Origin: a phage
Length of the DNA stretch: 64,000 nucleotides
Reading direction: 5' to 3' (one strand)
Assembly: GCA_008273105.1 (NCBI GenBank)
Contig: GCA_008273105.1_4080.1
In this document: positions 12,484 to 28,458 of the stretch, in pieces
Layout: every line of letters starts with the position of its first letter
Position numbering within the stretch: position 1 is the first letter of the stretch
Made by a program: the position numbers and the translations under genes
Notes under the pieces: model-generated
Seen by the model: the letters and a program-made list of their open reading frames with translations, nothing else
Databases searched by the model: none
Told to the model about the DNA's origin: nothing

Positions 12484-12518
12484 TAATGTTTATATACATT
12501 ATTTAGAGGTGCTAATAG

Positions 12519-13107: not shown

Positions 13108-13119
13108 TATATACCTCTA

Positions 13120-13437: not shown

Positions 13438-13447
13438 GTCCTTTTGT

Positions 13448-13924
13448 TTATTTTAGAATGTATAAGTGTTTTTCTGCATTGACCAGTCGGTGATCAATGA
13501 TTTCTTTGATAACGTTCCAGTTACCGCCGCCCAAATCGGCTCCAATTTTCGGGAAGTGTACATGAACATCTCGATCAACTTTACAAAAATAATTTAGATG
13601 TTTGAACACATCGTCGATTGCATCATAACTGACATATTTAGCACCGTCATTACCGTACATTTTTTGGGTAATACAGTTTGCAATAATCAAATTATCGTTA
13701 ATTGCTGAATATGCAATTTGTCCAATTCTAAGAAATCCCATTTCCTTTTCATATGCTTTATAATCATCATATGCCATTGGGTAACGATTTCTTAGCTCTT
13801 TTGCAAAACCTGAACCCATTTTACCCTGTGCGTTACAACCATGAGCAATTATATGTATTGCTGTTTTATCATCTGTTACAGTACTGAATAATTCAAACAG
13901 ATTACCTCGGTGTTCATGAATCAT
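13448..13924 (-). CDS. macrodomain protein, TARG1/OARD1-like (ADP-ribose processing)
   Basis: IIAHGCNAQGKMGSGFAKELRNRYP and FPKIGADLGGGNWNVI match recalled OARD1 blocks (ISHCISEDCRMGAGIA..., MPRIGCGLDRLQWENV). Confidence 0.65.
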   Translation of the reverse strand: MIHEHRGNLFELFSTVTDDKTAIHIIAHGCNAQGKMGSGFAKELRNRYPMAYDDYKAYEKEMGFLRIGQIAYSAINDNLIIANCITQKMYGNDGAKYVSYDAIDDVFKHLNYFCKVDRDVHVHFPKIGADLGGGNWNVIKEIIDHRLVNAEKHLYILK

Positions 13925-13934
13925 TATATTCTCC

Positions 13935-13966
13935 GAAAAGAAAGGACTCTGTGGTCAGAGTCCTTA
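13935..13966 (-). terminator. rho-independent terminator
   Basis: 9-bp stem AGGACTCTG/CAGAGTCCT, 4-nt loop, T-rich tail on minus strand. Confidence 0.6.
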
Positions 13967-13973
13967 TTTTAAA

Positions 13974-14231
13974 TTATTCTTCTTCACCGAAACGTATTTT
14001 CTTTAATTCTTTTCGATGCTTTCTAGCTATTGTACTTTTGTGAAGTCTATTACTGCGTTTTGTGTCTTTTGTAATGTACCATGAATCTTCTGGTGCATCA
14101 TAATCACAAAATCCATCTTCCGTAATTGTTCCTAAAAATGCAGATTTTTTAGGAATATTAGTTTGAGCTTTAGCCTGAAATTGACCTTTTGCTAATTGTT
14201 CACGAAAACTGAGCATAATAGTATCTCCCAA
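13974..14231 (-). CDS. hypothetical protein (basic C-terminus)
   Basis: 85-aa ORF. Confidence 0.45.
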   Translation of the reverse strand: MGDTIMLSFREQLAKGQFQAKAQTNIPKKSAFLGTITEDGFCDYDAPEDSWYITKDTKRSNRLHKSTIARKHRKELKKIRFGEEE

Positions 14232-14262
14232 ATTGTTAAGAAGAACTTTTTGTTCTTCACAT

Positions 14263-14514
14263 TTATTTAGGGTTGCCAGAAACCTTCACATGTTTGATAA
14301 ATGCCAAAATATCATCTTTACTAAAAGATTTTACAATAAATTCGACAGCGGAATCATACTGTTCTTGTTTAGATAGATATTCTTTCATCTTGTTAATTTT
14401 AATCTGGGCTTTTTCTTTAGCTATTGAAATATCAGGAATTTTGAACTCTACTCCCAACGTATCAGCTAGTTGTTTTGCACGAGATGATACTTTTTCAATA
14501 TCCATTAGTTCCAA
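14263..14514 (-). CDS. hypothetical protein
   Basis: 83-aa ORF. Confidence 0.45.
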   Translation of the reverse strand: MELMDIEKVSSRAKQLADTLGVEFKIPDISIAKEKAQIKINKMKEYLSKQEQYDSAVEFIVKSFSKDDILAFIKHVKVSGNPK

Positions 14515-14753
14515 CGACCTTCTTTAAGACCTTCAATAAACCCAGTACAACCACCTGGTACATAAATGTCATTTACGAAAATTTGAGGAACTTGACGAAC
14601 TGGTTCACCACAAATTTCAGACAGTTTTGAACCATCGATACCTTCAGCAACAATATCTACAAACTCCATTTCAAATTTATTTTGTTCACATACAGCTTTT
14701 GCAGTGTCGCAAAATTTACAACCAGTCTTGCGACCATAAATTTTAACTTTCAT
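14505..14753 (-). CDS. nrdC: glutaredoxin/thioredoxin (T4 NrdC-like)
   Basis: MKVKIYGRKTGCKFCDTAK: CxxC redox motif in NrdC-like context; ~82 aa. Confidence 0.75.
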   Translation of the reverse strand: MKVKIYGRKTGCKFCDTAKAVCEQNKFEMEFVDIVAEGIDGSKLSEICGEPVRQVPQIFVNDIYVPGGCTGFIEGLKEGRWN

Positions 14754-14754
14754 G

Positions 14755-15156
14755 TTATTTCCTTCTATTTCTTTGAAAAGCTTTAACAGCTTTAATAATA
14801 CTGTTACACATTCGTTCAGTCAAATACTTTTGACATTCTCGTACATCAATGTACATGAACTTATCCAATTCTGGATGACTCTTACCATATCTATTAGTGT
14901 AAGTACTTTTACAAACTAATTCATCTGGTATTGGTTTGTCTTTGGCAGTATAAAAGAAAAGTACTAACCTTTTTCCCTTTCTATAGGATACATCACCAAG
15001 AAACAGAAGATCATCTTCATCGATTTCGTATCCTGTCTCTTCGAAACATTCACGTACAGCAGCTTCTTTGAAAGTTTCATTACCCTCAGCTTTCCCTTTA
15101 GGTAAATCCCAATGATTCTGTCCGTGTTGTATGTCCGATAAGTATCTGACCATCAC
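14755..15156 (-). CDS. Nudix hydrolase
   Basis: Canonical Nudix box GKAEGNETFKEAAVRECFEETGY. Confidence 0.8.
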   Translation of the reverse strand: MMVRYLSDIQHGQNHWDLPKGKAEGNETFKEAAVRECFEETGYEIDEDDLLFLGDVSYRKGKRLVLFFYTAKDKPIPDELVCKSTYTNRYGKSHPELDKFMYIDVRECQKYLTERMCNSIIKAVKAFQRNRRK

Positions 15157-15264
15157 GATAAAATATTATACCACAACTATAACGCATATCTTATCTCTTT
15201 GTCATCAATCGATGTTCAGATACTAATAATTATATCAGTTATTGGTTTTTTGTCCCACTATTTT

Positions 15265-16377
15265 TTAGAACATTTGTTTGATTGCTTCATAACGAAGTTC
15301 ACAAACAAAATCACGAATTTCTGACGTTTCAAGTTCACCATCTTTGACCATTTGCTGAATATCAGGCAATTCAACATCAGTATAACGATCATAAACTTTA
15401 ATAATTAGATCTTCAAGTTCTAAATCAATTTCTTTTCGCAAAATGAAGTATTCCAAAACTTTATAAAGGAATTCTTCACCTCCGTTATTTTTAATATTCA
15501 TATCCAATAAAATATTACCCATTTCAATAGGGGTCTTTTTACGGAATGTTTTGATATCATCACGGAAACGTTTGATATAATTACTAAATTTAACATACTT
15601 AACTGGAACTTTAATAGCACCGTTAAGTACTGAATCATTATTTACTTCTTCATTTTCAAGAAGAATAGACCACAGAAAATATGGTTTATATACATCCGTA
15701 CAGTTCTCTGCAATATAATCAATAAGGTCTAAATTCTTTTTGGTCAAAGATGTATTAAACACCTTTTCGTAATAACCAAATTTACTTAGCGTCTTAAGGA
15801 ACTTTGCAGGCTTTTCTTCGGAAAATGCTTTTTCGAATTCCACAAAAACACGGTCAGGAACAAGATGATTTAGCTCACCACTATTGACCATTCCAATAGC
15901 TAGTTCCTCAGTGCTTTCATGGATAGTAAAGTCTGAATAACGAGTAGCAAATCGAGCAAGACGTAACACACGTAATGGATCTTCTTTAAAATGGTCAGAA
16001 ACATGACGTAGTACCTTGTTCTTGATATCAGCTTTACCACCGTATGGATCAATGTGAATTTGTAGTACTGGATCATACGAAATTGCATTTATTGTTAGGT
16101 CACGGCGATACAAATCTTGTTCGAGTGTTACGCCTTTTGTATCCACTTCAAAGCCACCATATCCAGTACCAGTTTTACGCTCAGTACGGGCTAATGCGTG
16201 TTCATTACCTTCTGGACTTAGATATACAGGGAAATCCTTACCTACTTGCTTATAGCCAATACTTTGCAAGTACTTAATATCAGATTCAGTTGCTCCGACA
16301 ATGACATAATCTTTGTCTTTTGCACGAAGACCCATTAAACGGTCACGGACGTAGCCACCAACCAAATACTTTTTCAT
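15265..16377 (-). CDS. cca: tRNA nucleotidyltransferase (CCA-adding enzyme), head/neck domain only
   Basis: MKKYLVGGYVRDRLMGL...DKDYVIVG...ALARTERK...RRDLTINA...EDPLRVLRLARF closely matches class II CCA enzymes; shorter than E. coli Cca. Confidence 0.85.
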   Translation of the reverse strand: MKKYLVGGYVRDRLMGLRAKDKDYVIVGATESDIKYLQSIGYKQVGKDFPVYLSPEGNEHALARTERKTGTGYGGFEVDTKGVTLEQDLYRRDLTINAISYDPVLQIHIDPYGGKADIKNKVLRHVSDHFKEDPLRVLRLARFATRYSDFTIHESTEELAIGMVNSGELNHLVPDRVFVEFEKAFSEEKPAKFLKTLSKFGYYEKVFNTSLTKKNLDLIDYIAENCTDVYKPYFLWSILLENEEVNNDSVLNGAIKVPVKYVKFSNYIKRFRDDIKTFRKKTPIEMGNILLDMNIKNNGGEEFLYKVLEYFILRKEIDLELEDLIIKVYDRYTDVELPDIQQMVKDGELETSEIRDFVCELRYEAIKQMF

Positions 16378-16512
16378 ATTATTCCCCCATCAACCAATCA
16401 CGCAAACGTTCCCATAAGCCTTTGGGCTTATATTCTGGGTATTCATATTCATCAGTGCCTTGCTCGGAAACACCCCAATCTTCTTCTAACATAGCAATCA
16501 TAATGCCTCCAA

Positions 16513-16935
16513 TTAAATTAATCTGTCACGTAGACGGTCGTAATATTTTTCGTGTATAGCTAGTATACACTGATATGCAGAATAGTCAATGCCAAATGTA
16601 TCATCAATGAACATGTACTGATCAAGTGCTTCTGGCCCATTATCATCAACTGGTAATGTCCCTTCTTTTTTTGATAGGGTGTGCCACATCAACTCACTTT
16701 CAATATGGTGAGTTGCGTATGTCAATTCAATCTTACTTTTTCTTAGTAAAATTAACAATTCATCATTGTCGTCGAGTGCATTACGAAATTTAATACGAAC
16801 AGTACCCTGAAAATTATTAGTGTACATAACACGATGTTGATTATATGTAACTAAACCACGTCTTTCAGTACTGATTTCGTGTTCAGCAAAGTACTTTAAC
16901 GTTTCATTAAATTTTGGAATTTTAGTAACGTCCAA
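16513..16935 (-). CDS. hypothetical protein (paralog pair A)
   Basis: 140 aa; shares (Q/Y)xFIDDTFGIDxxxYQ motif with 16922-17338. Confidence 0.5.
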   Translation of the reverse strand: MDVTKIPKFNETLKYFAEHEISTERRGLVTYNQHRVMYTNNFQGTVRIKFRNALDDNDELLILLRKSKIELTYATHHIESELMWHTLSKKEGTLPVDDNGPEALDQYMFIDDTFGIDYSAYQCILAIHEKYYDRLRDRLI

Positions 16936-17338
16936 TCACATAATCCTCATAAAGTTTGTATACCCTCATTATACTCTGATATGTATCAAAGTCAATGCCA
17001 AAGGTATCATCAATGAACTGATATTGCAAAAACTCTTCCTCTGTAGCAGCAATAGGAAGAGTCCCGTTTCGTTGTTCTGTTGATTGAACATCCTCAATAT
17101 ACATCAACACTATACTTTCATCCAGATTTATATCTATCATAAAAACATCTTCACTATAAAATATGTTATATGTACGGATGAAGAGATTTCCTGTTCTATC
17201 ATAACTTGACACGTGTGTTTCATAATACATTTTATCTAAACTAAAGAACAAACCTGTACTATCTGGCTTTTTAGTATTTTTTAATTTAATTTCGATAGCA
17301 TCAATCATAGGTTTAATATCAAACTTTTTCATAGACAA
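16922..17338 (-). CDS. hypothetical protein (paralog pair B)
   Basis: 138 aa; paralog of 16513-16935. Confidence 0.5.
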   Translation of the reverse strand: MSMKKFDIKPMIDAIEIKLKNTKKPDSTGLFFSLDKMYYETHVSSYDRTGNLFIRTYNIFYSEDVFMIDINLDESIVLMYIEDVQSTEQRNGTLPIAATEEEFLQYQFIDDTFGIDFDTYQSIMRVYKLYEDYVIGRY

Positions 17339-17514
17339 ATCACATACTTATTACTATGTGGATCGTAACAATATGAATCATTTACCTTAATACCAGGCTT
17401 AAGTTCAATAGTTGTTCCTGTTTCTGTACTGGGTTCTGCATCACAATAAATCATCACACCAACCCCGACTAGTAAGGATATGATACATATAACTATACAT
17501 ATTGTATATTCCAT
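17329..17514 (-). CDS. small membrane protein
   Basis: 61 aa, N-terminal hydrophobic helix. Confidence 0.4.
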   Translation of the reverse strand: MEYTICIVICIISLLVGVGVMIYCDAEPSTETGTTIELKPGIKVNDSYCYDPHSNKYVICL

Positions 17515-17527
17515 AAATTTATCTCCA

Positions 17528-17923
17528 TTATAAAAAGTAATTATACAGTTTATTGTACAATATAAAAAGGTCTTTCACATTATCATAAGTAATATCAGAT
17601 ACATCATGAATTAATGATAACTGAAAAAATGAAGCTTCGTCTATTTCTGCTGGAATTATAACATCACCATCGTCTTCGTCCATTTTATTGGTGTAGTATT
17701 TTATGTGATCTACATTCAACTCAATAGAGAACGCAATGTTGGTTTTTGTATAATCTTCAATTAATCCAATATATTGAGATTTTTCATTAATAAAAAATCC
17801 AATCCCAACACAACGGTTATCTGGATATGGATAGTACCATCTATTAATAACTAGGTGTTCAGGTAAGTCCATATCATGTGTTGATATTAGAGATTTTACA
17901 ATTTCCATCCAGGAATAATTCAT
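17528..17923 (-). CDS. hypothetical protein
   Basis: 131-aa ORF. Confidence 0.5.
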   Translation of the reverse strand: MNYSWMEIVKSLISTHDMDLPEHLVINRWYYPYPDNRCVGIGFFINEKSQYIGLIEDYTKTNIAFSIELNVDHIKYYTNKMDEDDGDVIIPAEIDEASFFQLSLIHDVSDITYDNVKDLFILYNKLYNYFL

Positions 17924-17976
17924 AATTAAAACTCCATAAGAAAAGGGACAGAATTAATCTGTCCCTTTAGTATATA

Positions 17977-18309
17977 TTACTCTTCGTTTTCTGTCAAATC
18001 ATCAAGAACTGGGTGTTCTGGATGGTTTCGGCGGTGTAATTTAATGCTTTTGTCTTTACTGAATACAGTTTCCATCTTATCAAAAGATTCAACAATTGCT
18101 TTATACAAATCAGCATCATCAGCAGTTACTGATTTACTACCAGCAGTTAAAGTTACAGCATATTGAGTTTTATGCTCTTTCTTAACATGAACACCAATGT
18201 CTAGTACTGAAGAAGTACGGTACTTATCCAGACTTTTTGCTTCATTGTAAATAGCATCTTGGATTGCTGGAGTGATATCAACGTTGCCTTGAATATTTAG
18301 ATTTAGCAT
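17977..18309 (-). CDS. hpf: ribosome hibernation promoting factor / RaiA-family protein (short form)
   Basis: MLNLNIQGNVDITPAIQDAIYNEAKSLDKY...LYKAI aligns with recalled RaiA/HPF N-terminal signature (NITSKQMEITPAIRQHV...). Confidence 0.8.
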   Translation of the reverse strand: MLNLNIQGNVDITPAIQDAIYNEAKSLDKYRTSSVLDIGVHVKKEHKTQYAVTLTAGSKSVTADDADLYKAIVESFDKMETVFSKDKSIKLHRRNHPEHPVLDDLTENEE

Positions 18310-18325
18310 ACTTCACCTTCCTTTT

Positions 18326-19252
18326 TTAGAGTGAACTTAACAACAAATCTGCTCGGTTTGTAACTTGACGATACCATAAGGAATTCATAATTTCTTTTTT
18401 AAATTTCTTAGGGTTATCATTTTTCACACTTTTCCAAAGTTTATTAAACGTTGCTAATTTATCAACACCCATTGTATAGGACATTTCATAAAGAATACGT
18501 TGTTGTTCTTTGGTCAGATTTACTGCTTCTTTTTTCTGCATCAATAATAAAAAGTCATTATATGTTCTTTTCATATCTTGCATTAAAAGTTTATTGGCTT
18601 GAGCTTTGGTAATACCGTTTCTGTACTTAATCGCATCAGATTCTTTTCTACCCAAATAATGCCCATAACCTATTGTATAATTACCTTTCATGTCCTTGTA
18701 GGGATGAAATTTAGAATTGTGGAAAGGAACTCCGACTTTCCCACCAAGTAAACGGCGTTTGTTCTTGGACTGAAATTCAATTGAACCTTCAGCTTCTTTG
18801 ATGTGATTGACAATTTCTGGATCATTATAATCAAACAGTACAGTCACATCTGGTAACAATACGTTCTTCAAATCCTCTTTTGTTGGGATAAAGATACCCT
18901 GAGAAGTATGAAGAGTAGCATTTAAATTGATATTTTTCAACAAAATAACATACTCTTCAAGTTGTACATTTTTAGGTTTAAACTTTTTAGCAATAGAATA
19001 ATAACTATCACCAGGTTGAACCGTATAATGCTTCTCGCCGCGTGGAACATCCTTTGATATTTCTACCTTTGGTAATTCCTGCTTTTGAATTTGCGTAACT
19101 TGTGGTTTTAAATTGTGTACCTGACTTTCGTCCGATGATGATACACGATCATTTTGAGAAAAACCATAAAATCCAATCGCAGCGACAAGTACTGTGCAAA
19201 CTAGAACACCATAAGTAGTCTTAGTTTTCAGTGCTTTTTTCGCTTGTTTCAA
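18326..19252 (-). CDS. T4-type lysozyme with N-terminal signal anchor and LysM domain
   Basis: YKDMKGNYTIGYGHYLG and WYRQVTNRA match T4 lysozyme; LysM-like YTVQPGDSYYSIAKKF; likely TTG start at 19252 behind AAAGGAGG. Confidence 0.75.
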   Translation of the reverse strand: MKQAKKALKTKTTYGVLVCTVLVAAIGFYGFSQNDRVSSSDESQVHNLKPQVTQIQKQELPKVEISKDVPRGEKHYTVQPGDSYYSIAKKFKPKNVQLEEYVILLKNINLNATLHTSQGIFIPTKEDLKNVLLPDVTVLFDYNDPEIVNHIKEAEGSIEFQSKNKRRLLGGKVGVPFHNSKFHPYKDMKGNYTIGYGHYLGRKESDAIKYRNGITKAQANKLLMQDMKRTYNDFLLLMQKKEAVNLTKEQQRILYEMSYTMGVDKLATFNKLWKSVKNDNPKKFKKEIMNSLWYRQVTNRADLLLSSL

Positions 19253-19420
19253 AACGCCTCCTTTGTTGATTGTTAAGATGGGCAATCACAAAGATGGCAA
19301 AGAGGCCATTTGCAAAAGCCTCATCGGACTTTCTACAGTACAAAAACGTTCTTTTCAAATGTTTAAGTAGTATAGCATATTTTTATTTTATTACAAGACA
19401 TATTTACTGTAAAAACCACA

Positions 19421-19831
19421 TTAATCGTAGTAAGTTCTACCTACAGTGATGTGATATTTAAAGTACTTGGTTGGTAGTCCTAGTTCATTTCTAATATGTG
19501 TGATGAAATCATCTTCAAATTCAATGATAAAGAATGAACCTGGATTCTTTTTATCTTTTACTATCTCAATACAAGGATTGAACTTTATCTTTACTTTCAT
19601 TCCATCGTACTTTTTCCAGTACTCTGGATTTGGTGGCACTTCACCACGAACGATACTGACATGTGCTCCCCATTGTGGGTCTTTAATATCAATATGTAAG
19701 TCAGTTCTGATGAAGTACTGGTAGTATCGAACCAACTGTAATGGAAGTTGTAGTACTAACCAGAAGTCCTTCTTCTTTTTCATAGTGCCACGATCTGGAT
19801 CATACACCAGAGTTCCTTCCATTTCAATCAT
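19421..19831 (-). CDS. hypothetical protein
   Basis: 136-aa ORF; sigma70-like TTTACA-17-TAAAAT just downstream. Confidence 0.5.
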   Translation of the reverse strand: MIEMEGTLVYDPDRGTMKKKKDFWLVLQLPLQLVRYYQYFIRTDLHIDIKDPQWGAHVSIVRGEVPPNPEYWKKYDGMKVKIKFNPCIEIVKDKKNPGSFFIIEFEDDFITHIRNELGLPTKYFKYHITVGRTYYD

Positions 19832-19838
19832 ATGTTAC

Positions 19839-20042
19839 CTATAAAATTACATATATGTTTTTATTTTCAATACGAACATATGTTTCCAAAACATCTTTCG
19901 GAATTTTATTACTTGTTTTGAACCATGTAGTATTCTCTACTAAAACAAAAGTTTCACCTTCAGTTTCACCAAATGTACTTAGTGCATAAATGAAGTAATT
20001 GGGTGATGCACTACAATATATATCAGCATTAATTTCAATCAT
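19839..20042 (-). CDS. hypothetical protein
   Basis: 67-aa ORF. Confidence 0.4.
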   Translation of the reverse strand: MIEINADIYCSASPNYFIYALSTFGETEGETFVLVENTTWFKTSNKIPKDVLETYVRIENKNIYVIL

Positions 20043-20045
20043 ATT

Positions 20046-20177
20046 TTACACCACAATAAAGCTTAATACAACGAGTGTAATAAACACACCCACAATGGCA
20101 GTCATTTCTGGATTTGCATCATATGTGTAGCGTATGCATTTTAGAAAATCTTTACCAAATTTCTTTAGTCCATTCAT
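20046..20177 (-). CDS. small membrane protein (43 aa)
   Basis: ATG with AAGGAA RBS; C-terminal hydrophobic helix; below track cutoff. Confidence 0.45.
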   Translation of the reverse strand: MNGLKKFGKDFLKCIRYTYDANPEMTAIVGVFITLVVLSFIVV

Positions 20178-20188
20178 ATATTTTCCTT

Positions 20189-20545
20189 TTATTTCTTGTG
20201 TAAAGGTTCATCACTTTCATAATAAATTGTATCATTATTTCGCTCTATAGTAAAGCTCTTTTGACACAACTCTTCAGCTAAACCCTTTGCATAGTTTAAT
20301 ACATCTCGGTTGAGATATACTTCTTCTTTTGGAAAGCGTGGGTACTGAATAATACGAGCACACATCCCACTTTCAAGACCACCAGTGTAGATATATTCAC
20401 AGGGAATTAATTGTACACAAAAGCCATGCTTAAACGCAAATTTTCTTGTGTATTCTCTTGCTGTTTGAATATCACCAGCAATATGGATATTCCAGTACTG
20501 TGTCTCCACTGTACCTTTATCGATGTATTTCATACTCATCTCCAA
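20189..20545 (-). CDS. hypothetical protein
   Basis: 118-aa ORF; start may be Met5. Confidence 0.5.
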   Translation of the reverse strand: MEMSMKYIDKGTVETQYWNIHIAGDIQTAREYTRKFAFKHGFCVQLIPCEYIYTGGLESGMCARIIQYPRFPKEEVYLNRDVLNYAKGLAEELCQKSFTIERNNDTIYYESDEPLHKK

Positions 20546-20562
20546 TTATAGCACTAAAAATC

Positions 20563-20952
20563 TCACTTTCCCAACTCTTCTATGATTCTTTTTATTGAAT
20601 CATGGTTTTCCAGACATAAAGTACTGTAATTTCTGCCAGTTTTTTCATTGAGGTCGTCGATTTCAATCATAAGATATCCATATGTAATATCTTGAACCCT
20701 ACTTCGTTTTACCCTTGAGTACAGTCTGATGGGTACAGATACACGAGTATTCAAAAAGAATTCTGATAAATCATAACGATATACCAGGTATTCATTCTTG
20801 TAACGTTTACGACTGTACGATTCTAAACACTGTGGAAAACGTCTATCAAACATACTACTTCTTAGTTGAAGTATGATTGGATCTAACTTATGTGAGTAAT
20901 ATTTTTTGATTATTTTATCAAATCTTTTTACGTGTCGTTTACGCCATCTCAT
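20563..20952 (-). CDS. hypothetical basic protein
   Basis: 129-aa ORF. Confidence 0.5.
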   Translation of the reverse strand: MRWRKRHVKRFDKIIKKYYSHKLDPIILQLRSSMFDRRFPQCLESYSRKRYKNEYLVYRYDLSEFFLNTRVSVPIRLYSRVKRSRVQDITYGYLMIEIDDLNEKTGRNYSTLCLENHDSIKRIIEELGK

Positions 20953-21446
20953 GTTCTAACTCCTTTCAATAATACAATAGGAAAATACTGTGTATCTGTA
21001 TCAGAAATACTATTACAGTACTCAATTATTTCTTGATGGAGTGTGTTTATATAAATGCTAGGATATGGAATTGGTGTTTGTATTAGTCCAGAACTATAAA
21101 CACAATCAGTTCTTTGACAATCAATATAGTGTGTTGTTGGTATACCTTTACCACGTTCCTCAACTACAATTGAGTACGAGTCAGCAATAAAAATGAACGC
21201 ATTGTTAATTGATACATATTGTAGGGAATACACATCATCATGAACTTCAATCAAAGGACCATCAAAATACATCAATACCGAACGGCGATAACCTAACACA
21301 TCACTCATTGCATCGAACTGTTCTTGTGATGAAAGATAACAAAAACACGTATCACGACATACGTCAATAAAACGCTTAAATGTTTCTGTTTCTATAAGCA
21401 TATAATTTTCCTTAAAAAAGACCCCACATAGTGAGGTCAAATACAT
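20949..21446 (-). CDS. hypothetical protein
   Basis: 165-aa ORF; ATGA overlap with downstream gene. Confidence 0.5.
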   Translation of the reverse strand: MYLTSLCGVFFKENYMLIETETFKRFIDVCRDTCFCYLSSQEQFDAMSDVLGYRRSVLMYFDGPLIEVHDDVYSLQYVSINNAFIFIADSYSIVVEERGKGIPTTHYIDCQRTDCVYSSGLIQTPIPYPSIYINTLHQEIIEYCNSISDTDTQYFPIVLLKGVRT

Positions 21447-21671
21447 TTAATCGTTATCATCATCCAATGCGTCACGGTAAACATAATAAACATGTGCACC
21501 TAGCAGAGCAATAAGTACAATAAAGATTAACCAGAATGGTACAAAATGCAGTACTAGAGAAAACGCCAGTACTGTAATAACCATTACAACTGAACTGAAA
21601 ATAAGACTTACTGCTTTTTCAAATCCAGATAGTAATTTTTTAAAGATTTTTTTCATAAATGAATCAACCAT
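21447..21671 (-). CDS. small two-helix membrane protein
   Basis: 74 aa, two hydrophobic segments, acidic C-terminus. Confidence 0.45.
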   Translation of the reverse strand: MVDSFMKKIFKKLLSGFEKAVSLIFSSVVMVITVLAFSLVLHFVPFWLIFIVLIALLGAHVYYVYRDALDDDND

Positions 21672-22014
21672 TTTTAATCCTCAAGAAAGTATGCTTACAT
21701 TTTAGTTTATTACCATAGAATGAAATAGGAACATTAAACATTTCAATCTTATCTTCTTTCAACAAACGTAGAATATCAGGATCGTTTTTTGTTTGAATGC
21801 AATGAAGACCATTAACCTGAATTTCTAAACCTTTCTTTAGATATTCATAAATTTTTTGACGACGCATCCCACCATAACTATCATTATGTACCACATCACG
21901 TAATTCTTTATATTCTTGCTTCAATGCTCGGTCTACAAGTGTTCCATCTTTCTTCCTGATCTCTGCAATACATTTATATTGATTTGAACCTCTAAGAGCC
22001 ATGTTGTACCTCAT
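21664..22014 (-). CDS. hypothetical protein
   Basis: 116-aa ORF. Confidence 0.5.
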   Translation of the reverse strand: MRYNMALRGSNQYKCIAEIRKKDGTLVDRALKQEYKELRDVVHNDSYGGMRRQKIYEYLKKGLEIQVNGLHCIQTKNDPDILRLLKEDKIEMFNVPISFYGNKLKCKHTFLRIKNG

Positions 22015-22471
22015 TAGGGTATTTTTTCATCAATTCGTGTAAACGCTGAATCTCTTGTTCTTTTTTTCTATCACTCTCGTATTTTCGAGAAAGTTTCTTT
22101 TTTGTATTTGCTTCTTCTAATCTAATATCAGTACAGAATTTGTCATTTTTAAAAAAATTGATACGCAATGCATCGAAAACAGACTTGAAATCGTTTCCTA
22201 ATTCTTTAGACGTGTCAGTATGATTATGAAAATACATATTATTTGTCATATTTACATGTTCAATTACTGCACCATTGTGCGTTACGATAAACATTATATC
22301 TCCATACTGTTCACGTGGTTCTGTACGATACAGATATATATGTTGACGTAAATAATCTTTTAATTCATGTTCAATGCCACTTTGTTCATAACTTTGATAT
22401 ACTAAAACCTCACCATCAGTTGAACTGTTGTCAGATTCATATGGTTCGCGGATAATTATAAGATTATACAT
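21992..22471 (-). CDS. hypothetical protein
   Basis: 159-aa ORF. Confidence 0.5.
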   Translation of the reverse strand: MYNLIIIREPYESDNSSTDGEVLVYQSYEQSGIEHELKDYLRQHIYLYRTEPREQYGDIMFIVTHNGAVIEHVNMTNNMYFHNHTDTSKELGNDFKSVFDALRINFFKNDKFCTDIRLEEANTKKKLSRKYESDRKKEQEIQRLHELMKKYPNEVQHGS

Positions 22472-22479
22472 ATTACTCC

Positions 22480-22761
22480 TTATACCGGAGATACGGTACT
22501 CAACATTAGTAAAGCTGTATTTTCATCAATTTCATGATAGTTGTCGCATACAAGTGTTTCCAACAAATCAGGATGATAATAATAATGTTCATAATCAGTA
22601 TCATTAGGAATATGATGATATACAAATACAATATCAAAAACATCATCATCATTTTCACTCTTGAAACGCTTTAATTCATCGACACTTTCAACAAAGCCAT
22701 ATTCTTCAAAAGCAGTTGTACCATCTGGTAGTTTCATCCATGCACTTGCAACAATTTTCAT
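22480..22761 (-). CDS. hypothetical protein
   Basis: 93-aa ORF. Confidence 0.45.
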   Translation of the reverse strand: MKIVASAWMKLPDGTTAFEEYGFVESVDELKRFKSENDDDVFDIVFVYHHIPNDTDYEHYYYHPDLLETLVCDNYHEIDENTALLMLSTVSPV

Positions 22762-22778
22762 AAATTTGTGAATCCTTA

Positions 22779-23363
22779 TTATTTTGTAATGTTTAGTTTA
22801 GAAACGAAGTATTCTTTGGCTTCTTCATATGTCATTGAAGTATACATAGGATTCCATTTATCGTCAAGATCAGTAAGTACTTTAACTTCCATTACATCTT
22901 CTGGTGTATAGAATTGCCATGTATTGTGATCTGGCTCATAGTTAGGGTCCAGTACAAAAACCGTACCATCCTGACCATAAACTTCTCCATCCTCTAATAG
23001 CTCACGGAAGAAATCTTCTCCAGTAGTTGGGTCTTCGTATGCATTATAAAAACGAAAAACTACATTCTCAACATCAGTTCGGGTAGTACCATCTTCTTCA
23101 TCATATTCTACCAAACGGTCCTGATGAAATACTAGGTCAATAGCACCAATGCGAGGTTTATTATGTGGAGTTTTGATTTCTTGCTGGGAATTATAATCAA
23201 TACGTTCAGTACTGATGAATACTCCGCTAGGGGTAATTTCAATACCAGACACATTTTCTGGTGAATAATAAGCGTCACACATGTCATCAATGTGCATGTG
23301 CTCATGATACACTTCCATTTCAGGATTCTGCAACAACAGTGCTGCTAAGTCTTTTGCTTTCAA
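22779..23363 (-). CDS. hypothetical protein (dispersed paralog 1)
   Basis: Starts MKAKDLAALLLQNPEMEVYH; paralog of 24099-24716. Confidence 0.55.
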   Translation of the reverse strand: MKAKDLAALLLQNPEMEVYHEHMHIDDMCDAYYSPENVSGIEITPSGVFISTERIDYNSQQEIKTPHNKPRIGAIDLVFHQDRLVEYDEEDGTTRTDVENVVFRFYNAYEDPTTGEDFFRELLEDGEVYGQDGTVFVLDPNYEPDHNTWQFYTPEDVMEVKVLTDLDDKWNPMYTSMTYEEAKEYFVSKLNITK

Positions 23364-23752
23364 TCTTCAATCTCCATAGAATTATCATCATCATAATCAT
23401 CACTGGTGTACTTAGTTTTTACCTCAATACCATTCTCATGTAGATATGTGATAAAACCATTACCATAAACGAATTGATTATAATATGTATTTTCTTCTAC
23501 ATGTGCATCATAATCATCTTCATAATATGTGGGTATTGTAACATCATGACCTACACTTTGCAAGTACTGGAACAATTCTTTCAGTACTACTTCGATATCA
23601 CCTTCTTCTGTACCATAACAATAAGCAGGTTCACCGTGAGTGAATTTGAAACCTTTACAGGAAACTGTATAAATGTCACTCATTTGTATACCACAATCAT
23701 CACATTCATGTATAGAACAATGCTGGTGGAATTTAATCTTTTTGATTTGCAT
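23360..23752 (-). CDS. hypothetical Cys-rich protein
   Basis: 130-aa ORF; HQHCSIHECDDCG cluster. Confidence 0.5.
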   Translation of the reverse strand: MQIKKIKFHQHCSIHECDDCGIQMSDIYTVSCKGFKFTHGEPAYCYGTEEGDIEVVLKELFQYLQSVGHDVTIPTYYEDDYDAHVEENTYYNQFVYGNGFITYLHENGIEVKTKYTSDDYDDDNSMEIED

Positions 23753-24092
23753 TTAGAAAATCCTGTAAAGATGTAGTAGACATTGGACTATCAGCACCAT
23801 CATACCACAGTGATGTATATGGCTGAACTGAACTAATATCAATACAGAATCCTTCACGCTCACATTTTCGAGCGAATTCTTCAGTAGTTAGTTTGTTACC
23901 AAAAGAAATCTCAAATTCATAACTAGACATATCAATATCAGTACTGTAAATCAATGCACCATCATATGTAATATGGAGTTTAGAATCTGCGTCAAAAAGA
24001 CGATCTGAAATAGCTTCATAATCATCTTCAGGAACTGCTTCAATAAGACGTGCCATTAGTCCAGATGTTACGCGGTAATCACTCATGTTCAA
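23733..24092 (-). CDS. hypothetical protein
   Basis: 119-aa ORF. Confidence 0.5.
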   Translation of the reverse strand: MNMSDYRVTSGLMARLIEAVPEDDYEAISDRLFDADSKLHITYDGALIYSTDIDMSSYEFEISFGNKLTTEEFARKCEREGFCIDISSVQPYTSLWYDGADSPMSTTSLQDFLNANQKD

Positions 24093-24098
24093 CCTCTT

Positions 24099-24716
24099 TT
24101 ATTTTTTAATTTTATCAATCATAGAAGGTGATACTTTTACATTGAATTCAGAATCAGGAAAATCTTTAGAAAATGAATCAATTTGTTCTTGTGAAAGTTC
24201 TTCTTTTTGTGGAAATAACATTTTAACTAAATTTTTACCACATTCAATTGCTTCATCATACGACATAGTTTCCCATGTTCCATGCCAAGTATTAGGTTCA
24301 TATTCTGTCAGTACAGAAATGAAATCAATATCATCGGGTGTATACCAAACAGCATTTTGATTCCCTGATGGTGCTGATTGATTTTTACCTAATAAAACAA
24401 TTGGCTTTTCATAAGGAATGTTAAATATCAACCCAGATTCTAAGTTAAGAACAGTTTGAATAGATGAACCCTCCAATTTTGGAGTAATAGTACCATCCTT
24501 AAAGAAAATTTGTACATGACCCAAGAGCGGGGTTTCGTATGGTGTAAGTACATTTTCAGAAACTGATGTGGGTTTTACCGTTGTGAAAATGCCAGATGGG
24601 GTGACCATTAATTTATTATCAAAATTCTGATAATGCAAGTCACTCTCTGCATCATAATGATAAATTTCTAGATTTGGTTGAGATAGTAGTAATTTTGCTA
24701 AATCATGAGATTTCAT
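24099..24716 (-). CDS. hypothetical protein (dispersed paralog 2)
   Basis: Start set at MKSHDLAKLLLSQPNLEIYH (GGAGAAATAAA RBS), matching N-terminus of 22779-23363. Confidence 0.55.
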   Translation of the reverse strand: MKSHDLAKLLLSQPNLEIYHYDAESDLHYQNFDNKLMVTPSGIFTTVKPTSVSENVLTPYETPLLGHVQIFFKDGTITPKLEGSSIQTVLNLESGLIFNIPYEKPIVLLGKNQSAPSGNQNAVWYTPDDIDFISVLTEYEPNTWHGTWETMSYDEAIECGKNLVKMLFPQKEELSQEQIDSFSKDFPDSEFNVKVSPSMIDKIKK

Positions 24717-24726
24717 TTTATTTCTC

Positions 24727-24757
24727 CAAAAGAAAAGGAGAGTCACAATGACTCTCC
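24727..24757 (-). terminator. rho-independent terminator
   Basis: 8-bp stem GGAGAGTC/GACTCTCC, 5-nt loop, TTTTCTTTT tail on minus strand. Confidence 0.6.
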
Positions 24758-24764
24758 ATATATT

Positions 24765-25205
24765 TTATTGTAAAACTTTAAGTTTGTAAAGTGTTCCTTC
24801 AACAAAACTCATAATATCTTCTAATGTGTTTACACTGCCGTAATCACCTGATTCTTCAAGCATATCATGAATTGCTCTACATTGCTCAACATATTCTTCA
24901 AGAATTGGTACACAATCTTCAATTGGTGTAAAACGGTAACTATTACCAGTTCCAACTTGTAAAGCACCACGATTATTCATGATACCTTCAACAAATGCGT
25001 CTACATATTCTGGTAATTCTTTATATAGTTCATCTAATTGTAAATGCTTTGTATAAAAATGACATTGTAAGTGCCAGTTATGTGCAGCAGAACTTAAAAA
25101 CAAACTATTTTCAATAAAAGTTAATAGTACTTCATCATATGAATTATCTTCTTCAGTACTTCCGATAAAGTCCATTACGTGTCGTAAATCATTAATATCT
25201 TCCAT
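24765..25205 (-). CDS. hypothetical protein
   Basis: 146-aa ORF. Confidence 0.5.
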   Translation of the reverse strand: MEDINDLRHVMDFIGSTEEDNSYDEVLLTFIENSLFLSSAAHNWHLQCHFYTKHLQLDELYKELPEYVDAFVEGIMNNRGALQVGTGNSYRFTPIEDCVPILEEYVEQCRAIHDMLEESGDYGSVNTLEDIMSFVEGTLYKLKVLQ

Positions 25206-25237
25206 AATATCTCTCCTTAGAGTTATTCTCTTATTAT

Positions 25238-25666
25238 TTAGTTAATAATAAAGGTAATTTCAGGATTCATTTCAGAAACTGCATTGCGTTTACTTCTATC
25301 CCATAGTATTCTGTTATTATACAAAGAAGAATCACATACTACAAGTAAGCAATTTCTTAATCTACTTACAGTACTTTGATTATTTAAATCAGTTTCTGAA
25401 ATAAAAAATACATTTTCAGGAACTACTAAAGGAATAGATTTATCAAAAAACAAAACTACAATAGGTCTTGTTGTATGAACTGATTTAACGAAATCCAAAA
25501 TACTATTATAAAAATTAGTTTCTTTAGTAATTACTGACGGATCTTTAATTCTTTTCAAATATTGCTGTGGTAATTGATGTTCGTCTTTTATCTGAAACTC
25601 AAAATATTCTTTGAATAACATTTGTGTTAATTCGGATTTATCGGATATTTTCGTTGTGTTACTCAT
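25238..25666 (-). CDS. hypothetical protein
   Basis: 142-aa ORF. Confidence 0.5.
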   Translation of the reverse strand: MSNTTKISDKSELTQMLFKEYFEFQIKDEHQLPQQYLKRIKDPSVITKETNFYNSILDFVKSVHTTRPIVVLFFDKSIPLVVPENVFFISETDLNNQSTVSRLRNCLLVVCDSSLYNNRILWDRSKRNAVSEMNPEITFIIN

Positions 25667-25868
25667 TCACTTCGTTCTCTCGTAACTCAAGAAGTCACTG
25701 CGTTTACTTCGTAAACTAGTTCCTTCTGAAAATGATAATGTACTTTAAAAACTTGACGGGATTTGTTGAGGACTATTACATCCCCCCGCAGGGGAATGAA
25801 GGTAATAAAAAAGAGACAATTAAGTCTCTCTTGACGATGATGGCATCGGATATTATCGAATTGCGAAT

Positions 25869-25898
25869 TTCTCAAATTTTGGACGGATCTTTCTTGTA
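25869..25898. repeat. 30-nt motif copy 1 (TTCTCAAATTTTGGACGGATCTTTCTTGTA)
   Basis: Direct repeat of 26021-26050; embedded in 13-bp hairpin 25870-25912 with CTTTCTTGTA in the loop. Confidence 0.7.
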
Positions 25899-26020
25899 CC
25901 AAAATTTAGAGAGCGAAAGCGGGTTGCTCGGTTTCTCTCTATCGCAGTCATATGCAACGGTCGCTGGTCTTTTCATCAACAGCACTCAGTACTAACTCTA
26001 TTCGATCAAAGTAGTACTTG

Positions 26021-26050
26021 TTCTCAAATTTTGGACGCAACTTTCTTGTA
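26021..26050. repeat. 30-nt motif copy 2 (TTCTCAAATTTTGGACGCAACTTTCTTGTA)
   Basis: 28/30 identical to copy 1; different 8-bp stem (GGACGCAA/TTGCGTCC, 26033-26062) again places CTTTCTTGTA in the loop. Confidence 0.7.
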
Positions 26051-26356
26051 AAAATTGCGTCCGCTATCCTTGAACTCCCTTAGCAAATCTGGTAAGGTGC
26101 GAACCTTATACATCTATCTAGGAACTCTCTGTATGCTTATCGGAGTTCTTTATACAGCCGTGTCGCCGTGATTCGTGGTCTTACATCGTGTTTGTTTGAA
26201 TGCCAGTACTCTAACAGGTTTCTTCTGCTGTTCGCTACAACGGTAAAGCTCATCTATCCTTTACATTTTCAAGAGAAGTAGGTTCTCAGTGTCCATTTTT
26301 CAATGTCCGTTGTCATTTTCTATATACATTATATCATTGGAACATATAATGTCCCA

Positions 26357-27165: not shown

Positions 27166-27777
27166 TCAATCATGTTTATTCAATTTCTTCTGTTCTTTTT
27201 TCAAAGCTTTCATATGACGACCAAACTCTCGAACATGCCATAGATGATCGGTTTCCCATAATTCTTGACGTAACCTACGTTCTTCTAGTAGTTTCGACTT
27301 GTCAATGTTATTTTTCTTTTTTTGTACATTAAAGAAATTATTCATATGTTCTTGGAGAAGATTACGACCTTTAACTTTCTCAAGAAACTCATCAACTGTT
27401 TCAGTTTTATTCGAACGTAGTTGATTACATCTGGAGCACATAGTATTAAAGTTTGACTCTAAATCAGGTCCACCCTTAGATGCCAGATGATTATGGTCAA
27501 CTGTCATTAAAACTTCATAAAGACCACATACAGCATATACATTTAAATGTGGTTTACCATATACTGGATCAGAACATAATGAACGTTCAATGCGTACTTC
27601 AGTAGCTTCAATCCCACATGCCACGCATTTTGGATTCTTAACAAAAGTAAGAACTTTTTGTGGGAAATATCGAAAAGTAATACCATTTAAAGTGTAGCGT
27701 TTCATCTTAGTACTTCGTTGATTTAATTCGTCAAGAAGTGATAATTTTGTCGTATAGTAAACATGATATTTGTTCAT
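27166..27777 (-). CDS. HNH endonuclease
   Basis: CVACG...DHNHLASKGG...N...CSRCNQLRSN HNH/Zn-finger motif; start at MNKYHVYY with AAGGAA RBS. Confidence 0.7.
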   Translation of the reverse strand: MNKYHVYYTTKLSLLDELNQRSTKMKRYTLNGITFRYFPQKVLTFVKNPKCVACGIEATEVRIERSLCSDPVYGKPHLNVYAVCGLYEVLMTVDHNHLASKGGPDLESNFNTMCSRCNQLRSNKTETVDEFLEKVKGRNLLQEHMNNFFNVQKKKNNIDKSKLLEERRLRQELWETDHLWHVREFGRHMKALKKEQKKLNKHD

Positions 27778-27778
27778 T

Positions 27779-28087
27779 TTATTCCTTGATATTGATTTTA
27801 ATATCTTTACCTTGTAAATCACGAATAGTTTTAATCAATGCGTCGTGTTTTAAAGCACATTCATTGTAGACTGCATCCCAACGAGTAAGTACTTTAAGAA
27901 TTTCTGCACCATCATAACCTTTAAAACCATTTTTGTCAATCATAATTTTTTGTGGTAGAGGTGTATCATCATCACATCTTTCTAACAGAATTTCTTGTTT
28001 AATTGGTGCGGGGGATTGTAGTTTTACTTGCTCGGCACACCCACTTATAATTAAAAAAGAAATCATTGGAACTAATAATTTTTTCAT
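27779..28087 (-). CDS. o-spanin-like outer-membrane lipoprotein
   Basis: MKKLLVPMISFLIISGC signal peptide with lipobox; immediately follows i-spanin-like gene. Confidence 0.6.
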   Translation of the reverse strand: MKKLLVPMISFLIISGCAEQVKLQSPAPIKQEILLERCDDDTPLPQKIMIDKNGFKGYDGAEILKVLTRWDAVYNECALKHDALIKTIRDLQGKDIKINIKE

Positions 28088-28458
28088 TTGAATTTATTCC
28101 TCGCTGCTTGAGAATTTTGTTTTAGTTCATTCAGTACTTTTACACCATCTTCATCTAAACATACATTCTTATAAACTTCACGTTCTACAATAAAAGGAAC
28201 CTTTGTTTCAATAACTTTAGCATTATCTTCCATGATTTTTTTAGTTTCAATGTAATTTTTTGCATTTTCTTGTTGCATTTTATCCAAGGCGGTATCAACT
28301 TTTTTAGCTATTTGTTGCTCTATGCTTTGTTGATATCCACTGTAATAAGTATTAGCTTCCCAACCAGCATAAGCTGAACCGCCAATTAATAATACAAAAG
28401 AAATTGGTTTCCAAAATGGAATAAGAATTTTTGAAACAATTATTTCTAACATACTCAT
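28084..28458 (-). CDS. i-spanin-like inner-membrane protein
   Basis: N-terminal TM helix followed by coiled-coil periplasmic region; ATGA overlap with lipoprotein gene. Confidence 0.6.
   Translation of the reverse strand: MSMLEIIVSKILIPFWKPISFVLLIGGSAYAGWEANTYYSGYQQSIEQQIAKKVDTALDKMQQENAKNYIETKKIMEDNAKVIETKVPFIVEREVYKNVCLDEDGVKVLNELKQNSQAARNKFK

Follow-up and report, generated by a model that had tools for sequence, protein, structure and literature searches.

Positions 19421-25666 of the 64,000-nucleotide (nt) stretch of phage DNA analysed here (contig GCA_008273105.1_4080.1 of NCBI GenBank assembly GCA_008273105.1; hereafter the window) hold a block of 16 small genes, which we number O1 to O16 by rising coordinate and which we read, on balance, as a conserved but individually dispensable accessory module. 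This reading was reached because the block is syntenic across the Rak2-like genera, yet O2, O4, O13 and O14 are missing in individual isolates and the divergence is mosaic. We lean towards a mixed set of products that would act independently on host physiology, not one multi-part system. Among them are a predicted compact 2H phosphodiesterase (O1), a putative Dps-like protein (O15), a widespread protein with enzyme-like conservation (O4) and a pair of acidic paralogs (O11 and O14). The block is headed by what is almost certainly a genuine structured RNA, which lies just outside it. A first-pass annotation, made by a model from the sequence alone, had likened the block to arrays that in T4-like phages mostly contain early host-takeover and anti-defence genes, and had therefore marked it as a likely source of undescribed inhibitors.

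Gene content of the block

All 16 genes lie on the minus strand, encode products of 43-205 amino acids (aa) and together give a coding share of 97.6%. Intergenic gaps range from -23 to +48 nt, with stops and starts that overlap, and only two gaps exceed 40 nt, each of which holds an intrinsic terminator. Every product matches a PHROG family over its full length (16/16, 1e-35 to 1e-105), and the ratio of nonsynonymous to synonymous substitution rates (dN/dS; Nei-Gojobori method, against phages fEgEco12 and JNE01) is 0.02-0.6 for every gene. Because of these ratios, the PHROG matches, the orthologues in other genera and the tight packing, all 16 are, to judge from sequence comparison, real genes under purifying selection and not chance open reading frames (ORFs) in AT-rich DNA. 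The dense array of the first-pass annotation is thus there, with 16 members instead of about 18 and with sizes of 43-205 aa instead of 60-215 aa. A 165-aa form of O6 and a 215-aa form of O14 were rejected as over-extended because they run across G+C-rich hairpins with T-run terminators (21438-21420 and 24757-24737, respectively); database annotations adopt shorter starts for both genes.

19421..19831, minus strand: O1, 136 aa, 2H phosphoesterase of the 2H-SAK type
19839..20042, minus strand: O2, 67 aa, acidic, phrog_23174; 47% identity in RaK2, absent in SD-1_S14
20046..20177, minus strand: O3, 43 aa, single C-terminal hydrophobic segment (Kyte-Doolittle 19-residue maximum 2.79); Asteriusvirus only
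20189..20533, minus strand: O4, 114 aa, phrog_4848, widespread phage protein; absent in JNE01
20563..20952, minus strand: O5, 129 aa, basic, isoelectric point (pI) 9.9; 32% identity in RaK2
20949..21401, minus strand: O6, 150 aa, 6 Cys, fast-diverging
21447..21671, minus strand: O7, 74 aa, two adjacent hydrophobic stretches and a charged C-terminus (RDALDDDND); 41% identity in RaK2
21664..22014, minus strand: O8, 116 aa, basic, pI 9.6; 49% identity in RaK2
21992..22471, minus strand: O9, 159 aa, fast-diverging; sub-threshold RusA, NlpC and LmuB matches only
22480..22761, minus strand: O10, 93 aa, very acidic, pI 4.2
22779..23363, minus strand: O11, paralog A, 194 aa, phrog_18200, TTG start, net charge -27
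23360..23752, minus strand: O12, 130 aa, acidic, 5 Cys; 45% identity in RaK2
23733..24086, minus strand: O13, 117 aa, acidic; absent in 121Q
24099..24716, minus strand: O14, paralog B, 205 aa, phrog_18200, ATG at 24716, net charge -13
24765..25205, minus strand: O15, 146 aa, Dps/ferritin-like, DUF5856, phrog_858; homologue of T4 rI.-1
25238..25666, minus strand: O16, 142 aa; found in Asteriusvirus only

Half of the products (8/16) are strongly acidic, with pI values of 4.1-4.7. The earlier statement that the products have no recognisable domains fails for O1 (2H-SAK) and O15 (DUF5856) and holds for the other members in profile scans. Forty-three orthologues from four other genera yielded no further domains against Pfam, an NCBIfam scan of the block products gave no domain matches, and the sole match in a PADLOC scan was the sub-threshold LmuB hit of O9. 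Weak Pfam matches to RusA, NlpC and IBD lay far below the cut-off. Profile searches therefore did not turn most members into genes of ordinary function: 13 of the 16 stay without an assignment even with their orthologues scanned.

The source phage is, by its sequence matches, an Asteriusvirus, a Rak2-like jumbo myovirus that has only scattered genes in common with T4. With megablast, positions 19421-25666 matched 36 phage records, all of them from coliphages or Salmonella phages of 310-386 kb that fall into the PBECO4/121Q/G17/phAPEC6 type. The taxonomy line reads Asteriusvirus wherever a matched record has one. The closest record was Escherichia phage vB_EcoM_E9.1 (99.4% identity over 100% of the query), and PBECO4, 121Q, G17 and phAPEC6, which are Asteriusvirus jumbo phages of 350 kb, are 97-99% identical. 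None of the matches belongs to Tevenvirinae/Straboviridae, so the T4-like frame of the first-pass annotation is wrong in its ordinary sense.

Conservation, gene loss and mosaic divergence

The same order of genes is found around the block in RaK2, Munch, Hallingskeid, JNE01, GAP32 and fHe-Yen9-04: spanins, an HNH endonuclease gene, a gap without coding sequence, the Dps-like gene, one or more paralogs, thymidine kinase, homologues of O4 and O1, and lysozyme. In other genera the orthologues stand at 30-70% aa identity. In fEgEco12 (5239-5823 of the compared stretch), RaK2, Munch and Hallingskeid, the thymidine kinase gene separates the homologues of O8 and O7; it has been cleanly lost, at about 21664-21671, in the source phage and its closest relatives. 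Other losses are scattered: O13 is absent in 121Q, O4 in JNE01, and O14 in CRJP21, JNE01 and some nine further Asteriusvirus records, and Salmonella phage SD-1_S14 has lost O2 together with parts of O4, O5 and O14.

Between the source phage and fEgEco12, aa identity ranges from 100% (O3) to 44.5% (O6), and synonymous divergence (dS) from 0.014 to 2.5. O6 sits at the extreme of both, at 44.5% identity and a dS of 2.5, next to adjoining genes that are 91-97% identical. By all appearance of the alignments, this pattern is a recombination mosaic. The losses and the mosaic fit accessory genes of host interaction and do not identify how these genes act.

A predicted 2H phosphodiesterase

O1 is a predicted compact 2H phosphodiesterase because its homologues belong to 2H-SAK, its double HxS/T motif is invariant, its structure model is confident and its fold matches are 2H enzymes. 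O1 itself scored 25.6 bits against the Pfam family 2H-SAK (PF22547), 1.4 bits short of the gathering cut-off of 27 bits. Homologues at 55-60% identity to O1 scored 35-39 bits, above the cut-off, and PF22547 was pre-annotated on 25 of the 28 homologues found in a search of 5.8 billion proteins. The motifs H57-V-S59 and H127-I-T129 are invariant in an alignment of 20 sequences. The AlphaFold model (predicted local distance difference test 90, predicted template modelling score 0.81) shows a 2H fold with two pseudo-symmetric lobes, and all matches listed by Foldseek are 2H enzymes, with Usb1 and LigT at the top. The nearest solved structure is Acb1, an enzyme that counters the cyclic-oligonucleotide-based antiphage signalling system (CBASS). 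Searches of O1 against PDB sequences, with the single sequence and with a profile, gave chance matches only.

O1 would hydrolyse bonds of the 2',3'-cyclic phosphate type. Its most likely task would be to heal the ends of cleaved RNA or tRNA, to which we give an even chance. Clearance of cyclic-oligonucleotide immune signals, as carried out by Acb1, is improbable, and some other role is improbable to the same degree.

The gene neighbourhood of O1 favours a task on RNA: lysozyme, HPF-like, CCA-adding and Nudix genes lie downstream of it in the window, and this set recurs in a distant relative. On a 106-kb metagenomic contig, a homologue with 49% identity stands in the order RNA ligase, HAD hydrolase, phosphoribosyltransferase (PRTase), DUF2828, 2H-SAK, lysozyme, HPF, CCA-adding enzyme and Nudix, and an RNA ligase lies inside the block in Munch and Hallingskeid. 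The comparison suggests that a fuller RNA-repair set (RNA ligase, HAD, DUF2828-type gene) has been trimmed in Asteriusvirus.

We also made observations on the DUF2828-type gene itself. In the relatives, a gene of about 505-530 aa stands directly ahead of the 2H-SAK gene, and in the metagenomic one (4222-5814 of the compared stretch) its product matches DUF2828/DUF7788. The Munch gene at 16387-17904 of the compared stretch is its counterpart by position and size only, and the block in the window has no counterpart.

O4 and the Dps-like protein O15

O4 is common to many unrelated phage groups. With tblastn, its homologues were found in 199 phage records, including Rak2-like, PVP-SE1/rV5-like and PAK_P1-like phages, N4-like roseophages, Rhizobium phages and Aeromonas phage 65. 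In the alignment of the family, 15 positions never vary (A-G, G-x-C, Y-x-Y-T-G-G-x-E-x-G, Y-P-R-F and Q-x-S); they look like those of a ligand or active site, so that conservation of O4 would be enzyme-like. O4 has no match in Pfam, NCBIfam or PDB, and a 14-member profile likewise found none in Pfam or PDB. Its neighbours vary: the homologue in PVP-SE1 stands between a phosphoesterase and RNA ligase 1, and the neighbours are a helicase and a DNA polymerase in R7L and nicotinamide adenine dinucleotide (NAD) salvage genes in Aeromonas phage 65.

Three labels on the fEgEco12 orthologues (record PP777464.1) were examined in this connection. The O4 orthologue is labelled 'SAM hydrolase', which the fEgEco12 genome paper does not discuss. 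A reading of O4 as an S-adenosylmethionine (SAM) lyase found no support: alignment with T3 gp0.3 by hhalign gave a probability of 0.3%, and neither Pfam nor PDB supports the label. O4 resembles the T3 SAM lyase (gene 0.3) only in being a small phage protein of similar size, with no detectable homology. The labels 'viral L protein' on the O1 orthologue and 'nucleocapsid protein' on the O3 orthologue likewise find no backing in profile or structure tests, and all three look like spurious transfers. Such labels could spread through databases.

O15 is probably a Dps-like four-helix-bundle protein and the counterpart of T4 rI.-1. It matches Pfam DUF5856 at 1.9e-28, over the 34.6-bit cut-off, and T4 rI.-1 matches the same family at 5e-33; its match to the Ferritin-like domain is sub-threshold. 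Weak collinear matches were found to the crystal structures of Dps, Dlp and HP-NAP (E 2e-4 to 0.1). By eye, the pattern H-N-W-H ... K-H ... D-A-F-V-E (H...H...D-x3-E) resembles the ferroxidase ligands of Dps. The likeness to Dps and other mini-ferritins thus consists of a strong DUF5856 match and weak matches to Dps structures; iron or DNA binding and a dodecamer are putative, and the database name 'starvation-inducible transcriptional regulator' is a transferred annotation only. O15 is the best-conserved gene of the block, at 72% identity to its RaK2 counterpart and 55-57% to those of Munch, Hallingskeid, GAP32 and fHe-Yen9-04.

The acidic paralog pair and the genes of no assigned function

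The first-pass annotation had named the genes at 22779-23363 and 24099-24716 as paralogs, and this was borne out, both starts included. O11 and O14 are homologous over their length (27% identity, E=5e-13 in BLASTP) and match phrog_18200 at 8e-91 and 2.5e-74, respectively. The TTG start of O11 retains the conserved N-terminus of the family, MKAKDLAALLL, and the ATG of O14 at 24716 follows just after a terminator hairpin. A word-indexed search returned 10 matches to the phrog_18200 family. When 1.84 billion representatives were searched with its profile, about 30 clusters proved genuine, none with a Pfam domain and each 164-205 aa in length. The paralog profile was also matched by two long repeat proteins (P0072 and P0073), which we rejected as repeat-summed artefacts, with cadherin-like and YDG repeats.

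In phage records the family occurs in Rak2-like phages only, often with two members per genome. The O11-type and O14-type lineages are both present in Munch and Hallingskeid as reciprocal best matches, so the duplication predates those genera. The two genes adjoin each other in Hallingskeid, flank the Dps-like gene in Munch and have two genes between them in the source phage. They are best read, from sequence and placement, as an old tandem duplication whose members were separated afterwards. Of the two copies, O14 is the dispensable one, as its losses listed above (CRJP21, JNE01 and about nine others) show.

Small membrane proteins and a Cys-rich protein had also been predicted, and both were recovered: O3 and O7 are membrane proteins by hydropathy, and O12 has five Cys and a conserved His/Cys set. 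In O12, H9, H11, C17-x2-C20 and C45 are invariant out to RaK2, a pattern that suggests a small metal-binding knuckle. O7 has Met codons at positions 1 and 6, and its shape appears holin-like. For neither O7 nor O3 was a holin profile matched in Pfam or PHROGs.

A structured RNA upstream of the block

Directly upstream of O16 lie the following features.

25806..26321, minus strand: structured non-coding RNA of ~515 nt, which heads the block
26328..26355, minus strand: sigma70-type promoter with an extended -10 for this RNA, GGGACA-16-TG-TATAAT
25830-25807, minus strand: terminator of the RNA, a hairpin followed by a U-run
25779..25794, minus strand: conserved CCCCTGCGGGGGGATG hairpin or motif between the RNA terminator and O16, unique in the window

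We regard the structured RNA as almost certainly genuine on the evidence of its alignment. Between O16 and the DUF7325 gene there are 690 nt (25667-26356) with no consistent ORF, in which the records annotate two to four tiny coding sequences or none. Identity to JNE01 is 86% for the DNA of the RNA but only 29-47% for the proteins encoded on either side, and this DNA also aligns in blocks with Munch and Hallingskeid. We collected 38 distinct copies of the RNA with 52-97% identity and aligned 32 of them for structure. RNAalifold gave 78 pairs in 16 helices, which include long-range closures, and 52 of these pairs have compensatory double changes. Standard pairs fill 95.2% of the cells, compared with 38-45% when the partners were slid by 1-3 columns; cells with double changes number 501 against 54-94 in the slid controls, and sliding also lowers the covariation score from 0.574 to about 0.1. 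The observed values were not reached in any of 500 shuffles. The fold of the single sequence has a minimum free energy z-score of -3.2. In the CCCCTGCGGGGGGATG hairpin, all 32 copies, which come from many genera, have the same GGGGGGATG core; changes in the C-rich 5' arm are confined to C to U, so that G-U pairs are kept on the minus strand. Because G-U pairs are frequent, as in the C-to-U-only variation of helix 16, the folded strand is taken to be the gene strand.

The RNA is a multi-copy element. A sensitive blastn search found it at 265 places in 72 phage records, with about four copies per Asteriusvirus genome. Across the Rak2-like genera examined, 4-5 diverged copies per genome appear to stand at conserved positions; the window contains one, and GAP32 has four, near 35, 99, 261 and 341 kb. 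Further copies occur in CBB, fHe-Yen9-03/04, XbC2, Serratia BF, the pEa_SNUABM phages, Munch/7t3, EJP2 and RaK2/K64-1. Every copy examined sits in an annotation-free gap of 700-900 nt, and all genera checked have a copy in the syntenic place ahead of the Dps-like gene. An extended -10, TGnTATAAT, stands upstream of the copies in the window, JNE01, Munch, Hallingskeid, BF and GAP32, and a hairpin with a U-run terminator follows many copies. In GAP32, the genes beside another copy equal O1, O2 and O4 in length but are not homologous to them.

Rfam 15 gave no match at gathering score for the window copy or eight others, and at E<=10 only chance snoRNA-like matches appeared. ARAGORN found no tRNA or transfer-messenger RNA in the element, which also has no similarity to ncRNA002 of PA5oct, a 451-nt 'putative lncRNA', or to the rnaC/rnaD region of T4. 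A hammerhead reading of the GAUGAG...CGAA segment was rejected, as no Rfam hammerhead matched and position 4 is A, not U. Our literature search found no description of the element or of non-coding RNAs in the PBECO4/121Q group. We think it probable that the RNA has not been described anywhere. Taken as a whole, an RNA that is genuine, undescribed, ~470-515 nt long and built of at least 16 helices is somewhat favoured. The block may have evolved together with it.

As to function, the RNA may act in cis, as a long leader for read-through of its own terminator and those inside the block (processive antitermination or a regulated terminator), or in trans as an abundant RNA. That it controls the expression of the block is doubtful. 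The CCCCTGCGGGGGGATG motif could belong to the RNA itself, serve as a promoter element or be bound by a protein. Four non-coding RNAs, among them a highly expressed one of 451 nt, are produced by the distantly related phage PA5oct (PMC7318152; PMC12286853).

Transcription signals and genomic setting

The signals inside the block and at its downstream edge are listed below.

21420..21438, minus strand: intrinsic terminator after O7, GACCTCACtatGTGGGGTC + T6
24737..24757, minus strand: intrinsic terminator after O15, GGAGAGTCAttgTGACTCTCC + T-run
24790-24762, minus strand: sigma70-like promoter ahead of O14, TTTACA-17-TAAAAT
19413-19385, minus strand: sigma70-like promoter ahead of the lysozyme gene, with the same TTTACA/TAAAAT hexamer pair

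These signals would let the host sigma70 RNA polymerase read three terminator-delimited units, namely O16-O15, O14-O7 and O6-O1. Transcription would start at or just behind the strong promoter that first yields the ~515-nt structured RNA. The related phage PA5oct is known to depend on host RNA polymerase (PMC7318152). The core of the T4 late promoter, TATAAATA, occurs twice in the window against 11.7 copies expected, and nowhere in the block. One of the copies, at 42916-42923 on the minus strand, stands 35 nt upstream of the start of an 898-aa ORF at 42881. This placement, together with the rarity of TATAAATA, points to a late promoter of the T4 type at that site and to its avoidance in the rest of the window.

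All genuine-looking ORFs of at least 90 aa lie on the minus strand across the window, whose DNA is AT-rich, with a GC content of about 32%. The block is flanked by the following genes, the last three of which form a translation- and tRNA-related cluster (14755-18309) downstream of the block.

27779-28458, minus strand: Rz-like spanins, on the upstream side of the block
18326-19285, minus strand: endolysin, LysM-lysozyme, downstream of O1
17977-18309, minus strand: HPF/S30AE-like ribosome hibernation factor
15265-16377, minus strand: CCA-adding or poly(A)-polymerase-type nucleotidyltransferase
14755-15156, minus strand: Nudix hydrolase

We noted that a series of genes found in T4 (HNH mobD-like, rI.-1, tk in the relatives, lysozyme e, Nudix nudE, the deoxynucleoside monophosphate (dNMP) kinase gene 1 and tail genes) follows the same coordinate order in T4 (56-78 kb) and in the window (7929-19285 and 27166-27822). 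Because this order is mirrored relative to the direction of transcription, it was left unexplained, with no decision between coincidence and rearrangement.

Weighing the explanations

The explanation to which we incline is that of a mixed set. In it, O1 would process RNA ends or related bonds, O15 would be a Dps-like protein, O4 an enzyme-like protein spread over many phage groups, O11 and O14 an anciently duplicated, very acidic pair confined to the Rak2-like lineage, and O3 and O7 small membrane proteins; the remaining small acidic or basic products would most plausibly bind host proteins or nucleic acids. The analysis itself shows that the genes are real, their homologies and motifs, the fold of O1, the synteny, the natural losses and the sequences of promoters and terminators; expression timing, all biochemical activities and any anti-defence role of the block are what we infer from these.

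Several findings weigh against this explanation. Thirteen of the 16 products offer no functional handle, and the structure model of O11 is too poor to interpret. In a search with the Munch-type RNA ligase, Escherichia (Asteriusvirus) and RaK2 were not among the matches listed. Sigma70-like matches across the region number 61 against 56.5 in shuffles, which is no excess, and the block lies between tail and other late genes of its own strand. Since our literature search found no transcript map or expression data for the PBECO4/121Q group, early, sigma70-driven expression is deduced from consensus matches. Against the side of host interaction and anti-defence in particular stand the synteny of the block over several genera, which is not that of a hypervariable island, and the fact that every megablast match is of the Asteriusvirus type and not T4-like.

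The competitor that fares best, which we hold tentatively possible, is that the 3' end of the block serves RNA repair and the maintenance of translation. O1, perhaps with O2-O4, would act with the HPF-like, CCA-adding and Nudix genes to restore tRNAs and ribosomes hit by host ribotoxins, and the rest would be unrelated filler. The 2H-SAK family, to which O1 is assigned through its homologues, has been placed in RNA-repair systems. The run of genes from RNA ligase to Nudix around the 2H-SAK gene of the metagenomic relative, the RNA ligases in the Munch and Hallingskeid blocks and the position of an O4 homologue between a phosphoesterase and RNA ligase 1 in PVP-SE1 all agree with such a role. 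The 2H enzymes of jumbo phages have been assigned to the processing of 2',3'-cyclic phosphates by Iyer et al. (PMC7824862). However, an RNA-repair role of O1 in the source phage is weakened because the Munch-type ligase is seemingly absent from Asteriusvirus, and no kinase or ligase was found near O1 within the window. The neighbours of O4 elsewhere are replication genes (N4-like roseophages) or NAD salvage genes (Aeromonas phage 65).

We consider it unlikely that the block is an anti-defence island, in which most members would be dedicated immune inhibitors, with an Acb1-like O1 directed at CBASS, type III CRISPR or Thoeris-like systems and O10-O14 as DNA mimics or stoichiometric inhibitors. 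Such an island would agree with Acb1 as the nearest solved structure to O1, which at 136 aa is as compact as such viral enzymes, with the eight products of pI 4.1-4.7 and net charges down to -27, and with the individual dispensability of the genes in a mosaic block. However, O1 was rejected as a member of the Acb1 family at the level of sequence: it has no match to PF23474 at E<=0.1, while T4 57B matches at 2.7e-60, and alignment of the O1 family with T4 57B by hhalign gave a probability of 0.4%. The O1 family also retains RNA-repair and tRNA neighbours, and the block is syntenic across genera instead of variable. No product matches a family with a demonstrated anti-defence function in Pfam (Acb1 included), PHROGs, NCBIfam or PADLOC, and our literature search found no anti-defence work on the PBECO4/121Q group. 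For the earlier proposal of an early host-takeover and anti-defence block, then, the gene losses, the mosaic, the acidic products, the lack of the T4 late motif, the sigma70-like promoters and intrinsic terminators and the structural closeness of O1 to Acb1 speak in its favour, and the T4 premise, the synteny, the separation of O1 from Acb1 and the Dps-like nature of O15 speak against it. For O1, family and gene neighbours count for RNA repair at least as much as the structural likeness counts for anti-defence. An anti-defence role is plausible and unproven, and nothing positive ties most members to host takeover.

Less likely still is a set of accessory genes of the lysis region, with O7 and O3 as holin and antiholin and with O15 and its neighbours in lysis timing. 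The block does lie between the spanins (27779-28458) and the endolysin (18326-19285), O7 has the adjacent hydrophobic stretches, charged C-terminus and Met codons at 1 and 6 described above, and T4 rI.-1 adjoins the lysis-inhibition gene rI. However, no holin family profile matches O7 or O3, T4 rI.-1 itself is without known function, and the explanation would cover two or three of the 16 genes even if true. Finally, an annotation artefact, to which a GC content of about 32% and many short alternative-frame ORFs might point, is refuted by the dN/dS values of 0.02-0.6, the full-length PHROG matches of all 16 products, the orthologues at 30-70% identity and the tight packing.

Relation to known systems and significance

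With the small-gene clusters of T4 (mobD.x, rI.-1, tk.1-4, vs.1-8 and e.1-8), the mixed accessory block has in common that the genes are small, dense, co-directional, mostly uncharacterised and dispensable. An rI.-1 homologue, tk (in the relatives), lysozyme, a Nudix protein and a nearby dNMP kinase are found in both regions. In contrast to the T4 clusters, the block belongs to another lineage (350-kb Asteriusvirus), contains no further member with a detectable T4 homologue and has its order reversed with respect to transcription. O1 shares the 2H fold with Acb1 (T4 gp57B, phage FBB1; PF23474) and no relationship at the level of sequence, and its substrate is putative. With 2H-SAK (PF22547), LigT/ThpR, Usb1 and CPDase, it shares the catalytic motifs, the fold, family membership at the level of its homologues and, in its relatives, RNA-repair neighbours. 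Unlike the cellular 2H RNA enzymes, O1 is a stand-alone minimal domain with no ligase or kinase partner near it in the window. The upstream RNA resembles ROOL, GOLLD and the non-coding RNAs of PA5oct as a phage-borne, multi-helix, non-coding RNA of about 0.5 kb, and differs from them in that it has no Rfam match, occurs in several copies per genome and is known from sequence only.

The ORF array itself is ordinary for a jumbo phage: another cluster of hypothetical genes, a label it already bears in more than 35 GenBank records. According to PMC7247149, a function is lacking for 83% of the genes in this therapeutic jumbo coliphage lineage. The array is of practical value: the block can serve as a ranked experimental list, which includes a minimal 2H phosphodiesterase, O4 with its distribution over jumbo, rV5-like, N4-like and T4-like phages, and an ancient acidic paralog pair. 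O1 could define a new branch of viral enzymes of RNA repair or immune-signal clearing. The wider interest lies in the adjacent multi-copy RNA, which is directly testable. With its length of 0.5 kb, its strong covariation and no Rfam family, it would join the few large structured RNAs known from phages.

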